The notes below the pieces were generated by a model that was not told the DNA's origin, did not search any database, and worked only from the letters and a program-made list of their open reading frames with translations. From Glaucostegus cemiculus (Eukaryota): DNA of 64,000 nt. This document shows, piece after piece, positions 40,795-59,607 of the stretch. The position numbers and the translations under genes were made by a program. How positions within the stretch are numbered: the stretch's first letter is position 1; each line of letters begins with the position of its first letter. Location: the NCBI GenBank assembly GCA_976551045.1, contig CDPCPM010000247.1, forward strand, positions 620,001 to 684,000, in the 5' to 3' direction.

Positions 40795-40903
40795 CATCAC
40801 GTCCATCTGCTACTTGCTAATTGGCTGCTGCGTTGAGGGGGTGGGCAGAGCTAGTGTGTCACTTGTCTAATACATGGTGGGTAGTTATATTCTCTCATTC
40901 AGC

Positions 40904-40939
<36 letters not shown>

Positions 40940-41052
40940 CACTCATCGACTAAAACACTAAAACTATATACAAAGTTTCTTCTACTTTGGTTTCTGCAAC
41001 TCTCAATTTATCAAAACAACTCACTCACCAAAGGAAAGGTCTCTCAGAGAGA
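40795..41052 (+). promoter_or_regulatory. Putative TIMP3 proximal promoter/5' UTR, copy A
   Basis: Inverted CCAAT box (ctaATTGGctg, 40820-40824), GT/CACCC box gggggtgggc (40837-40846), no clear TATA box, then (GA)15, directly upstream of ATG 41053. Confidence 0.6.
40906..40935 (+). repeat. (GA)15 microsatellite
   Basis: Perfect dinucleotide run. Confidence 0.95.
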
Positions 41053-41182
41053 ATGGCAGTTTCCACCACAGCAGCTTTGAGTCTGCTGCTGGCTGTGAGC
41101 AGTGTTCAGTTCAGCCAGCTAACGGAAGCTTGCACTTGCATGCCAAACCATCCTCAAGACGCTTTCTGCAGCTCTGACATAG
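41053..41182 (+). CDS. TIMP3: TIMP3 exon 1, copy A (signal peptide + mature residues 1-17)
   Basis: agagaATGg...GAC ATA G|gtaagg. Translates MAVSTTAALSLLLAVSSVQFSQLTEA/CTCMPNHPQDAFCSSDI, with the TIMP signature CxCxPxHPQxAFC. Phase 1 matches exon 2. Confidence 0.95.
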
Positions 41183-54645: not shown

Positions 54646-57329
54646 TACTTGATATTGACAGCAAACACCTTAAATCTTTTTGCTCCAAGTAATGGAACTG
54701 TCCTACAGTTCACTGACAAGTCAGCACATCTCCTCCTTGCACATCTCAGAGGAAGTAAAGATACAGAATGTACTGTTGTGGGGTGCTTCATACTCCAGGA
54801 CTGGTAATAACTTTATGATGTCTCAAGTGGCTGAAATGGGTAAAATCAAGGCCTTTAGTCTGTGCCTTGGTCAAATCAGCATAAACGAGCCAAGCTACCT
54901 GGTCTATGTGTTTGTATGTATGGAGGTACTTATTGGATTGGCCATCCACAATAACCTCTCTACAGAGCCCAACCTTCCCCCTGCCTCTCCACTTGTTCCA
55001 TGTTTGGACCAGTTATTTAAAACTGATCTCCAACTGGAGAACAAAGCATTTGATGCAAGTAATTCAACCACTTTTACACTCTGCCAGAATTTCTTTTGCC
55101 AGTTTTAGTCCACTTTCCCCAATTACTTTGGTTGGTAAGTTGATAACTAGACATAAACTTAATTACCAATGGAGTTTGCGAAGAAATTATATTCTTGTTT
55201 TGATTCAGAATTGTTAGGATGAAATTCTGTATTAGAAAGATCTATTAGCAAATATCTCTAATGGCTTTCAATAAAGCAATGAAAATATTTTTGAAAACAA
55301 ATATATAAGTATAAAGAATAGGCATGGTAGATGTCTGCTCTTTCAGAGGGTTGAAAATAGAATGGTTTCACTCAATGGTTGGTCACATTTTGGAATGGTT
55401 GCCTGATTTTTTTCCCCACAGATGCTGTCTGGCCTGCTGAGTTCCTCCAACATTATAGTGTTTTTCATCTAGATTCCAGCATCTGCAGTCCTTTATTTCT
55501 CTCGAAATGGCTGTATGTGTATGCCACTGGATATTAATTGTAAAGCTGTCAGACCCAGTTTATGATTTAAATATACCTTTAAAGGGCAAAGCAGGTTCCA
55601 GCACTACCCATGCAAAGCTGGGTACTGAACTCATAATGCACACTGCAGTTATCCACATGCAATTTTTGACTCACATGATTTCACAGGCATCTCAATGTAG
55701 TTTATGTCTGAATAAATCCTAGTAAATCAGGGAAAGCTTCTGGCCTTATTCTATCCTCAATAACAGTAACTTCTGCTGAAGCCTAAAGAAAAACGTTATC
55801 CATAACTTATGGACTTAATTGCTTGGAAATCGTTGGACTCCTCAGTTCAGCAGGAAGCTAAAACATAATTTCTTCCTGCAAAACCCGACATTGAAATGTT
55901 GAAACTAGTGGTGTTATTCCCTTCCCAGCCTGCATCTGTTTCAGGTGCATGTGAGGCCTGGCATATCCTCCTCACAGGAATGTCCTGGAATGGTCTTCCT
56001 TTCTCCTAAACTTTGAAACTGGATTTTCAAGGCCCTCAGTGAGCAAGTCTAGGCACATTGTAAATTAAATTTCTATTCACTACAAAAAAAACTCCTGAAA
56101 TGTTTAGTTACTCAGTTTACCAGCACCTCTTTCTTTGCACCAATCAACATTTGGTTGCAATTAACACTTAATCCTTATTTAAAATCAATATGAATTCAGG
56201 TAGTTAATTAGATTGTTATGAAACCCAGCTGCACTCAGGGGTAGCTACTAGTTAACGACTACTAATTTGATTTAATACATGGCAATCAAAACTACAGGGC
56301 TTTGATTGCAAGAATGGAAATCCTCTTACGTACTGCTCTGGAAATGGAAATAAGATTAAGTGACAAAGTAAAACTGTTCATTTCTATAAATGTTCTAAAT
56401 GCACTGTTTATCTGGATCCAGACACTGGCTAATGGAATTGGGCCAAATTATTTAAAATGCAACTTTAGCAAGGGGCAGTGTGTTCATACACTCTTTCCAT
56501 ATATAGCCTTTCAGAGAGAGCAAGTACTAATACACAGAATGTGCCAATAAGGGGGAATTACTGGTCGGGAAACTGCAGACATGCTTACAGTTGAGAATTA
56601 ATGGCAATGTGTCCCGGTAACTAGGTGAACCACAGGGAACCTGGCTAATTAGTGAAGTGGTCTCAAACCAGTTCCTAAGAGTTTGTTCAACACCACAGAT
56701 CAGTATGAGGTTATGCAGCTTATTAGCCTTTGAAAGAACTGAATTTAGCACAGGGGCCATTCAGATCAGTTTCAGTCTCTCAGATGAAACATTTCAAATT
56801 TGCCACACTACTTTGTACCCAAAAAGCATTTTTATTCCCAACTTGCCTCTTCAACCTCTATAGGAGCCACACACTATTCTCCACTTTCTACAAATGACAG
56901 GAACATTTGTTTTTTTCAGATTTACTGCCAGTTTCCCCATGTCATTCATAGCAGGGAGCTTAAAGTATACTTCTATAAGAGAGAGGAACTTCATATAATG
57001 AGGCTTCCTAAAAATGATTCTAAAAACTATCCTTGAGAAGAGTAGATAAGTTTTTTGGAATAAAAAAATTATTAACATTCTCCATGTCTGTGAACTACAT
57101 AATTAAATGTTTTGGTGACAGACCACAATTGCAATAATTGGTATACCTTGGCTGAAGTGGCTGAAAAGCAGAACATGTGATGTGGAGGGCAGTTGGGTCC
57201 TAAGTTCAATTTTCCTCTGATATATCCTGGCTTCATTATTACTATCTTTTTCCAGAAATCCATCAAGTTTATATCAGTTTAGATGATGCAAAGTCTTACC
57301 TGTGCATCTCTGACCACGCTTCATCTACT

Positions 57330-57615
57330 TGTACACTGTCCAGGATGAACATGGATTCTAAATTCCAGTGCAGTACTAAGGGAGTTCTGCACTGTCAACT
57401 TCTGTTCTCTTTGGTGGATGCAAAAGACATCACAGATTATTCTAAGGTTCCAGCCAAAACTTAAACTTCATTAAAGATGATTTAAGAGATATTCTGGTCA
57501 AAATCACCTAGCTGTCTGATGCGGCTAATTAAGCACATACTGTTCTTGCATTTCTGCGCATCAAAAGAACTTCATCGACTGTAAGGCAGTTTGGGATGTC
57601 CTCATATCATGGAAG
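57330..57615 (+). mobile_element. Degenerate Deu-domain SINE (SacSINE1/AmnSINE-like)
   Basis: tccagtgcagtactaagggagttctgcactgtc core and tail tgtaaggcagtttgggatgtcct, matching the family as recalled. Confidence 0.45.
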
Positions 57616-59524
57616 CTTTTTGGATCTTTTACTGCCTGACACACATACAGTGTCACCCAGAGCAGACATGACATTCAGTTGCTGCCATCAATGTGGAACC
57701 CTGCCCTCAATGATCTGCTGCTGCTGAGCTGTCAGGCCTAAGGAAATTGTTCAGCTCCGAGGCTGAACCAGCTGTCAGGCCAAATCTGGGGAATATGATC
57801 CCAAGTGGGTCAAATCTCTAACCCTTTAACTAGATTTTGAATATTTACATTGCCTCCTATTTTTTTATGGCAGGTTGCATATCTGAATATTGCCTCAGTC
57901 AGGCCTTGAGTGTCAAATGGGTGGCTGAAGGGAGTTTCAGTTTTACTACTTTATTGCTGTTTACCCATTTATCAAGCACGCGATAATCACCTGGCACTTT
58001 AAAATCACTCCCGTACATCTCTGTCTTAGCTGGTGACAAACTGCTGCACACGGAGAATAAAAGAAAACTGCATTGTTTCCTACTAAACCTAAGATCCTTG
58101 TCAGAAGCTGAAATTTTGTAATTCTGAGGTTTCTGGTGGAGCAAAATTTGCTTTATTTATACAATGTTCAGATTCCAAGGCAAATGGGAAGAAGGGCAAA
58201 AGGGAGCAGTTTGAGTATGTGTGACATTCCATTCTGGCACCGTAATATAAATGATCATAAATAGGCACCACAACATTGCTAATGAGAGGCCATGCCAAAG
58301 CAGATTTCCGTACTAACCATTTCCAAAGCAGTGACCTTGTCAGGTCTGTTACACAATCAGACTTTTGTTCCCTTTAGACACTCAAAATTAGGTTGACCAG
58401 AAACTACTCTTTAAAAGCTAAGCCAAATCCTTGGAGCAAGATGCAAAACAATGTGAATTGCTGCTGGTGTTTTTCCACATTCTTGCCCCATCTGGTACAC
58501 TGCACCTAGCTCCCTCATGCTGCCGCTTGGCTGGTATGGAACAAAAGTCCACTTGTGCTTAGGGGTGGGGTGGTGAGCTATAGACTAAATACACGGAAGC
58601 TCCAGTGGAAGTCACACACTTTCTTTGAAACAAAGCTTTACGATCAAATGCTCAAAGCCAGCTTCAGCACACTGCGTGTATAACCTTGCTGCATTTCTTT
58701 GGAATGAACATCGAGAGCTGCCAGTACACATCGTTTATGGGAAGCAGGAGGGAGGAGGAATGGAGGATAGGGGAACAATGTTGAATAGCCCAAAGGAAAG
58801 GCCTATACCAATTTGAAGTGCTCTCATCCACAAATGCTACAGAGGTACATTGTAACCTGTTCAGTGAGAAAAGATGTTCTCTTCTTGCAGGTAGTTCTCC
58901 TGACCTCAAAAAGGAGATTTTACTGATGTCAGTCTAGAAACAGATTTCTGTGCCTCATCAGTTTTGAAATTGCCTTGTTTCATCCTTCATTCATTCACAT
59001 TAGTAACTAGTTCCATATCTTCATTACTTCCCCTTTACAGAATCATTCTATGTTTGCTAACAAAAGCTGTCAAAGTGCCTGCTTTCCTCAACAACTTCAC
59101 AGAGAAGGTTGTGAAATTTACAACGCTATTTCCTCCCATTTTCTCTCTGCACCAGAATTCAACATTTTGCCAGGGTTTGTTTCCACAGGTTCCAGCCTCC
59201 CCTGAGTGGCTGTATTTGAAGCCTGACCTGTTGTGGTGCTTACATTCTTTTCAACCACTGGGATTATCTCATCCGGTTCTCATCTCATGCCTGCAGGTCT
59301 AAAAATGATAGGAGTGATAACCCTATTTGATATTTATCCCCGTCTGGTTAGTTCAACAGTGGAGAGCAAAATGACCAAACAGGAAGGAGCTGCAACAGTA
59401 GTTTAAATAACAACGTGAAGTTTGTGTGCTGTTTTTATGCTGTCAAATTTAGCCAACACTTATGTGAACTGATAAACTTGGCACTTTAAAATGGAATGAC
59501 CTTTACTTATTCTTTATCTTCCAG

Positions 59525-59607
59525 TTATTCGAGCAAAAGTAACTGGGAAGAAGCTACTGAACCATGGGCCTTTTGGGACAATGCGCTACTCTGTCAAACA
59601 AACGAAG
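59525..59607 (+). CDS. TIMP3: TIMP3 exon 2 (83 nt), single copy in this window
   Basis: ttctttatcttccag|TT ATT CGA GCA AAA...ACG AAG|gtgaga. Translates (V)IRAKVTGKKLLNHGPFGTMRYSVKQTK, with the TIMP VIRAK motif and the TIMP3-type GPFGT loop. Confidence 0.95.

Follow-up and report, generated by a model that had tools for sequence, protein, structure and literature searches.

Two tandemly duplicated first coding exons upstream of one shared exon 2 at the TIMP3 locus of the ray Glaucostegus cemiculus

A duplicated 5' coding exon combined with alternative promoters can place homologous N-termini on shared exons, the arrangement that we also propose for ray TIMP3; according to the available part of PMC8373072, N-terminal substitutions derived from tandem exon duplication account for 39 of 236 events in humans, and an age of at least 425 Ma is given for more than 90% of human events. 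The main text of that paper contains no match for TIMP. The clusters of UGT1, UGT2A, GCNT2 and protocadherin consist of tandem homologous first exons, each with its own conserved upstream motif, joined to constant exons, with just two such first exons in human UGT2A (PMC1885805, available in part). Vertebrate TIMP3 has five exons, lies nested antisense in Syn3, and binds the ADAM17 cleft through Cys1-Ser6 (PMC7308558, available in part). In TIMP-1, residues 2 and 4 occupy the S1' and S3' pockets, the T2G mutation abolishes MMP inhibition by N-TIMP-3, and residues of the TIMP N-terminal ridge have been mutated by engineers to alter selectivity (PMC3003256, available in part). The N-terminal ridge of TIMP3 is described as deciding which metalloproteinases are blocked, and one ray lineage has put that segment on an alternative exon.

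The window analysed here is a 64,000-nucleotide stretch of G. cemiculus DNA that holds a gene encoding a Pfam TIMP domain, with a Cys1-X-Cys3 start after the signal peptide. Among TIMPs the locus is nearest to TIMP3, an inhibitor of MMPs, ADAM17 and ADAMTS4/5 that binds matrix; TIMP2-like and TIMP4-like genes (labels from translations) are located on contigs C301 and C137, and the B isoform of Pristis has N-TIMP3 as its best PDB match (3CKI chain B, E 9e-66, alignment from residue 27, which is Cys1). The gene is nested antisense within one intron of a synapsin gene, which we infer from this nesting to be SYN3. The Pfam TIMP domain, five-exon path, synapsin-intron nesting and N-TIMP3 match are shared with vertebrate TIMP3, whereas the single coding first exon of vertebrate TIMP3 is replaced by two alternative ones at the ray locus:

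17374..17442, minus strand: synapsin exon, one flank of the host intron
40795..43924, plus strand: duplication unit A, containing exon 1A with its 5' leader, the promoter-like block ahead of them and the first ~2.7 kb of intron 1; original upstream DNA retained
40795..40900, plus strand: predicted core promoter A, with reverse CCAAT at 40820, GT box at 40838 and Inr-like word at 40894; start probably near 40897-40900
41053..41182, plus strand: coding part of exon 1A, signal peptide and mature CTCMPNHPQDAFCSSDI, ancestral type
43925..46550 (approximate end), plus strand: duplication unit B, behind the intron of unit A, with only ~100 bp of duplicated DNA 5' of the predicted start
43925..44030, plus strand: predicted core promoter B, with reverse CCAAT at 43950, GT box at 43968 and Inr-like word at 44024
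44169..44298, plus strand: coding part of exon 1B, signal peptide and mature CSCMPSHPQHAFCNSEV, derived type
59525..59607, plus strand: exon 2, shared, 83 nt; a single copy in the genome searches
63008..63119, plus strand: exon 3, shared
contig C247 at ~685371 and ~685840: exons 4 and 5, just outside the window
contig C247:690303-690404: the other flanking synapsin exon

Re-measurement gave the values of the first-pass annotation, which had described two intact 130-nt copies of exon 1: both are open, differ at 12 of 130 nt and 7 of 43 amino acids, retain Cys1, Cys3 and Cys13 and end in a phase-1 G|gtaagg donor, and exon 2, with its ttccag acceptor, continues either of them in frame. A tblastn search with a full ray TIMP3 query against the window and two downstream loci returned exon 1 twice and exons 2 to 5 once each. 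Genome searches, in which only the best-scoring candidates were evaluated, agreed with these counts (two exon-1 copies, one exon 2 and one exon 3-5 set on contig C247), so that the proposal of a single downstream exon 2 for both first exons holds among these candidates; they revealed no third exon 1, the next matches being the first exons of the TIMP2-like and TIMP4-like genes. As a control, the 600-bp exon-1 regions of these two genes matched themselves alone when 11 loci were compared.

Self-BLAST and alignment revealed that exon 1A is part of a 3.1-kb tandem unit, 40795-43924 being repeated at 43925-~46550, with two common bases (CA, read by eye in the alignment) at the unit junction, 12% divergence between the introns (165 of 1375 aligned bases) and large private indels. 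That the two units, each with a promoter-like block and an exon 1, arose by an old tandem duplication upstream of one exon 2-5 set is confirmed. Each copy had also been credited with a CCAAT and GT-box promoter of its own, and the motif words are indeed present in both blocks, but such words are short, and conservation of the block does not significantly exceed that of the intron (8 of 102 versus 165 of 1375 differences, p=0.26); neither block contains a TATA-like word. We treat the promoters as predicted, and consider it likely that one TIMP3 gene with two anciently duplicated first exons gives rise, probably via alternative promoters, to two secreted isoforms, of which B is derived and retained. 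Each first coding exon would be spliced to the same exon 2, and the isoforms would differ only in the signal peptide and the first 17 mature residues. Copy A would still have its native upstream DNA and encode the ancestral protein. Copy B would have received the core promoter only and now lie behind intron-derived DNA; its six amino acid changes would have reached fixation ahead of the divergence of sawfish-like rays from stingrays, and B has been maintained ever since. Its retention would most probably be due to a different expression pattern together with modest tuning of an N-terminal segment that includes the part entering the metalloproteinase active site.

Counting junction reads had been suggested as a check, and both junctions were seen in RNA of a related ray, whose listed exon-1 differences yield, without mismatch, residues 1-43 of both members of the Pristis pectinata X1/X2 isoform pair. 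The raw-read runs X2, X3 and X4 come from one study; X1 consists of contigs and is RNA by guess. The 41182->59525 junction (1A to 2, GT..AG) was covered by 13 reads in X2, nine in X4 and none in X3 (two of three raw-read runs), and 44298->59525 (1B to 2, GT..AG) by nine, 21 and two reads, respectively (three of three). These reads are stranded and sense, and both junctions land on the same exon 2 acceptor. Each of the three raw-read runs contains reads of either copy, with a B share of 6/32 reads (19%) in X3 versus 69/157 in X2 plus X4 (42-48% each; p=0.009), a weak difference between samples that is not significant when distinct read starts are compared (p=0.08 and 0.10) and for which the runs carry no tissue labels.

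Might promoter A alone drive all transcripts, with exon 1B reached by read-through or a cryptic acceptor in its leader and the choice made by splicing? A tctctcag word stands 5' of both ATGs, and 8 joints plus 290 loose ends lie outside the listed set. However, stranded reads cover 44120-44298 and depth is zero across 42453-43754 in four of four runs, and no joint from 1A to 1B or into 43925-44170 is found among the 15 of 23 joints listed. Moreover, depth on the 1B leader climbs gradually, as at a 5' end (8, 18, 20 and 33 in X4 at 44120, 44131, 44147 and 44180), and B retains its core promoter words intact, making the single-promoter route improbable compared with a separate start for each copy.

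Fewer reads than expected cross the 1A junction: at 41163, X3 has 22 reads but no junction read, and X4 has 9 of 61, below the 44% allowed by the filter model. Use of another acceptor by the X3 reads was ruled out by the column of cleanest reads (3 at 41163) and by the lack of depth beyond 41182; as three cleanest reads remain at 41163, X3 shows no short-overhang clipped reads there. A pile-up of 5'-end fragments together with the 95% filter may account for the shortfall, an unproven explanation that covers it only in part. In X1, the 1A contig aligns from 40946, with 46 further letters 5' over a skipped GA repeat, and stops 27 letters into exon 2, possibly where an assembly with 31-letter words would break after merging with another exon that ends in TAG. 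Because X1 holds no 1B contig, it was not counted as support.

The same arrangement is present in RefSeq, whose entries are automatic predictions, so that conservation across species is seen at the level of protein models. Pairs named metalloproteinase inhibitor 3-like isoform X1/X2 occur in Pristis pectinata, Hypanus sabinus, Mobula birostris, M. hypostoma and Hemitrygon akajei, five of the eight batoid species named among the matches listed, and in none of 11 sharks nor in the chimaera among the RefSeq models listed. With the same A and B N-termini on an identical remainder, they are orthologues of the ray arrangement: the differences are confined to residues 1-43, and from residue 44 to the end the two members of each of the five pairs have one and the same sequence. 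The two versions have thus been kept across sawfish-like rays and stingrays. The mature A N-terminus is identical in 6/6 species, the mature B N-terminus varies between species at 1.2 of 17 residues and stands 6-7 apart from A, and the B exons form one clade (support 100/99).

These pairs bear on two further readings. The first-pass annotation had allowed that each exon 1 might belong to a separate full TIMP3 gene, which best-candidate scoring or an incomplete assembly could have concealed; the genome searches found no second full gene among the best candidates, only one exon 2 and one exon 3-5 set, and, given the identity of residues 44-end in each pair and the use of one acceptor by both junctions, we regard this reading as practically negligible. 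Somewhat less remote, though still very unlikely, is that exon 1B is dead or dying in G. cemiculus or that the pair is an uncollapsed haplotype. A simulated dead exon copy was still intact in 12-19% of runs, making intactness weak by itself, and the RNA is from the related ray only; the case is carried by the RNA junctions and by conservation across species. Orthologous B exons exist in five other species, that of Pristis 2 of 43 residues away from B of G. cemiculus, and spliced 1B reads occur in a close relative. The earlier argument against a haplotype artefact is borne out by the 12% intron divergence, the private indels, the single exon 2-5 set and the X1/X2 pairs elsewhere.

Ray TIMP3, with its predicted promoters, joins the known N-terminal substitutions formed by tandem exons and alternative promoters: its homologous 5' coding exons are adjacent and derive from tandem duplication, and each is joined separately to the same exon 2 (related ray, three raw-read runs, one study). 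The human events of this kind are mostly at least 425 Ma old (PMC8373072, available part), whereas the TIMP3 event is confined to rays. The likeness to UGT1A and protocadherin drawn in the first-pass annotation is sound for the architecture, with tandem same-frame first exons that carry an upstream motif and a signal sequence and are each spliced to constant exons (PMC1885805, available part), but not for scale. UGT1 and protocadherin have arrays of large exons that encode a whole recognition domain, whereas ray TIMP3 has two exons of 130 nt that swap 17 mature residues, rather than many large ones, and is nearer to UGT2A, GCNT2 and ordinary N-terminal tandem-exon substitutions; nor is there any sign of stochastic or CTCF-type choice. 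No paper on first-exon duplication in a TIMP or on TIMP3 isoforms of rays is among the literature matches listed (titles and abstract openings; 15 of 105 and 25 of 1,404 matches in two of the listings), and the available parts of PMC9409782 and PMC4860685 contain nothing on TIMP first-exon duplication. That the first-pass annotation was not aware of a description for a TIMP agrees with the papers listed, but the isoform pairs were already in RefSeq predictions, and as the design is well known too, the surprise is limited.

All six mature changes map to B and none to A (6:0, p=0.03), with polarity set from sharks, Narcine and skates and residue 14 ambiguous since most sharks carry Asn, providing a clean example of asymmetric evolution following partial gene duplication. 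A bolder version of the two-isoform reading, which we hold only tentatively, is that rays possess a swappable reactive-site exon: promoter choice would exchange residues 2, 4, 6, 10, 14, 16 and 17 while the scaffold stays the same, B would have been neofunctionalised under positive selection (with a later Arg4 in stingrays and mantas), and tissues would deploy different metalloproteinase selectivities. B of stingrays and mantas carries Arg4, that of G. cemiculus and Pristis Met4. The B changes are conservative, and their excess over A reaches significance only if the B stem branch was short (p=0.003 to 0.39 across the stem lengths tried). Two isoforms with different inhibitory N-termini had been proposed; the splicing of both exons to exon 2 in the related ray and the predicted isoforms favour two products, but in ridge residues 1-5 of G. 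cemiculus the sole A/B change is Thr2Ser, and Ser2 is common elsewhere.

A serious competitor for the functional half of our reading, with the same anatomy and a probability not far short of even, is that both exons are real and in use while their two products do not differ in function, the duplicate being retained for dosage or shared expression, B having drifted in an early relaxed phase before both came under ordinary TIMP constraint. Consistent with equivalence, both copies are read in the three raw-read runs, most B residues are common in ordinary single-exon TIMP3s (Ser2 in 35/56, Ser6 in 31/56 and Asn14 in 42/56 bony-vertebrate-type matches with the motif), no significant dN excess arises unless the stem is assumed short, and the skate pair, which differs by a single signal-peptide residue, suggests that a second copy can be maintained even when its mature end is not distinct. 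Evidence to the contrary comes from the 6:0 asymmetry and the fixation in 6/6 B exons of His10 and Glu16, found in only 1/56 and 4/56 of the matches elsewhere. In addition, the two copies of some species seem to have swapped residues of the signal peptide (copy A has Phe4 in Hemitrygon and M. hypostoma, but not in Hypanus or M. birostris), yet the mature parts remain distinct in all six. The natural A/B pair, identical past residue 17, is suited to testing the role of residues 2, 4, 6 and 10.

Within G. cemiculus, pN is 0.017 and pS 0.145 in the signal part, and pN/pS is 0.143/0.218 in the mature part; recent gene conversion of the signal part is unsupported, as its pS is close to the intron value. 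The protein collection contains no short B-type fragments. Skates may represent a homogenised or an independent counterpart of the two-exon arrangement.

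The first exon of TIMP3 is duplicated in tandem (units A and B), with both reading frames intact. The first-pass annotation had described two copies (exons 1A and 1B) and a lone exon 2, and we recovered all of these, together with the start contexts, cysteines and donors, as it had reported them.

Features of the locus (window positions; the window spans C247:620001-684000)
40795-43924, tandem duplication unit A
41053-41182, exon 1A
43925-~46550, tandem duplication unit B
44169-44298, exon 1B
59525-59607, exon 2
754-17442, minus strand, exons of the host synapsin gene, which continues on the same contig to C247 position ~739779; Pfam and open frame
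3052-3150, 8935-9063, 10638-10730, 12518-12727 and 17374-17442, minus strand, synapsin exons; Pfam Synapsin/Synapsin_C

Between exons 1A and 1B, 12 of the 130 nucleotides and seven of the 43 residues differ, with one residue change in the signal peptide and six among the 17 mature residues. The units diverge at 8/102 positions of the promoter block, 12/90 of the leader, 4/78 of the signal codons, 8/52 of the mature codons, 21/100 of the first intron bases and 165/1375 of the remaining intron. Because the left breakpoint lies only ~100 bp upstream of the Inr-like word, unit B received the reverse CCAAT, the GT box and the Inr-like words without DNA further upstream. Two independent promoters are predicted, with high probability. 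Neither leader contains an upstream ATG. Each leader carries a (GA)15.5 repeat (40906-40936 and 44036-44066), equal in length despite 12% divergence elsewhere. The insert at 41770-42560 is present in unit A alone; short interspersed-repeat fragments lie there and at 49750-49950 and 55400-55510, where partial reads on both strands pile up.

Pfam TIMP matches mark at least three loci in this assembly, on contigs C247, C301 and C137, and C247 holds a single set of later exons. DNA and protein searches of the genome found two exon-1 copies and one exon 2, and tblastn with a full ray TIMP3 (the window and two of 11 retrieved loci) matched exon 1 at two positions and each of exons 2-5 at one. These genome-wide counts are lower bounds, and the assembly may be incomplete; the single exon 2 and single later-exon set bear out the earlier claim of one locus rather than two full genes.

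Four of six listed RNA runs were aligned to 40500-60000: X2, X3 and X4 (raw reads from a single study, each run sampled to about a fifth) and X1 (contigs, second study). The RNA comes from a relative with fixed differences, and the exon-1 differences listed for it, once translated, match both isoforms of Pristis pectinata over residues 1-43. Stranded sense reads covered both first exons in X2, X3 and X4, and in this related ray each exon is spliced separately to the one acceptor, as the first-pass annotation had proposed, through GT..AG joints 41182->59525 (X2 13, X3 0, X4 9 reads) and 44298->59525 (9, 2 and 21). No joint led into exon 1B among the best 15 of 23, and depth across 42453-43754 was zero in all four runs. 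Counting against splicing of 1A to exon 2, X3 had 22 reads over exon 1A at 41163 and no junction reads, and X4 had junction reads for 9/61, below the 44% allowed by a model of the 95% filter; the exon 1B fraction was likewise below its allowed 71%. Most X3 reads over 1A cover 41038-41163, a pattern that fragments piling up from a start near 40900 would produce and that may explain the shortfall. By the "cleanest" column, no short-overhang reads pass from 1A into a different exon. The B share of reads was 6/32 in X3 versus 69/157 in X2 and X4 (p=0.009), or 5/18 versus 48/94 on distinct starts (p=0.08); we lean slightly towards differential use of the two first exons. X1 aligned to 1A only.

At the level of protein models, the arrangement is conserved: in the RefSeq isoform pairs (X1/X2) of Pristis, Hypanus, Mobula birostris, M. 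hypostoma and Hemitrygon, all differences fall inside residues 1-43. Counting annotated isoforms rather than exons, no such pair occurred in 11 named sharks or Callorhinchus (cluster 1, best 15 of 17), and Narcine and Rhinoraja had one TIMP3 entry each. Mature A is CTCMPNHPQDAFCSSDI in 6/6 species and mature B is CSC(M/R)P(S/T)HPQHAFCNSE(V/I). Since the six B exons group in a single starred clade (support 100/99; tree of 43 columns and 23 rows, skates omitted, 11/19 inner branches open), the duplication would be older than the divergence between sawfish-like rays and stingrays. Phe4 occurs in the B signal peptide of Hemitrygon, M. hypostoma, Hypanus and M. birostris and in the A signal peptide of the first two only, which suggests occasional B-to-A conversion confined to the signal part.

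The Leucoraja erinacea isoforms (XP_055506046.1/XP_055506047.1) both carry an A-like mature end and differ solely at residue 15 of the signal peptide (Val/Ala), and both variants are found among Logan proteins (best 15 of 17). This suggests two near-identical first exons, arising from an independent recent duplication, from the old pair after conversion, or as an assembly artefact.

All six mature differences were assigned to B (p=0.03; residue 14 ambiguous). Among 56 of 70 bony-vertebrate-type TIMP3 matches bearing the N-terminal motif, Ser2 (35/56), Ser6 (31/56) and Asn14 (42/56) are common, so that the unusual residues of B are the rare His10 (1/56), Glu16 (4/56) and Val17 (2/56), plus Arg4 (0/56) in stingrays and mantas. 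His10, fixed in all ray B exons, has its sole case among these bony-vertebrate matches in Anableps anableps. B has one acidic residue fewer than A and, in stingrays and mantas, one basic residue more. According to PMC7308558, TIMP3 residues 1-6 touch the ADAM17 cleft; according to PMC3003256, residue 2 occupies S1' and residue 4 S3' in TIMP-1/MMP-3, and with T2G the Ki of N-TIMP-3 for MMPs exceeds 1000 nM, with inhibition of ADAM17 and ADAMTS spared. Altered inhibitory selectivity of B is thus plausible. The Thr-to-Ser change at residue 2 is mild; that A and B differ in biochemical profile is a tentative proposition, somewhat on the doubtful side. For the mature part, pN/pS between A and B is 0.143/0.218, and six changes on the B stem exceed neutral expectation only if that stem is short (p 0.003-0.39).

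The pair belongs to the same class as the 39 human N-terminal tandem-exon-duplication substitutions via alternative promoters catalogued in PMC8373072. Of the UGT1A/protocadherin design first proposed, the mode of operation stands, being that of UGT2A and GCNT2 (PMC1885805), but a cluster of UGT1/Pcdh scale is absent. None of the papers listed by our literature searches describes a TIMP with duplicated first exons, in line with the novelty first claimed, but the isoform pairs already stand in automatic RefSeq annotation; the arrangement is real, conserved and apparently undiscussed.

TIMP3 sits in antisense orientation between two successive exons of a synapsin gene, matching the nesting in Syn3 that PMC7308558 describes for it. 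A Pro/Gln/Ser-rich frame at 754-1137 (minus strand), devoid of Pfam matches, is probably a late exon of this host. The whole-genome search found two synapsin loci and neither a third nor a TIMP1-like locus (lower bounds), and the TIMP4-like gene on C137 sits inside the corresponding intron of the second synapsin. Within the host intron, a plus-strand open frame of 494 codons (25473-26957; Pfam RVT_1 and ALKBH8_N) is a retrotransposon remnant, likely of non-LTR type.
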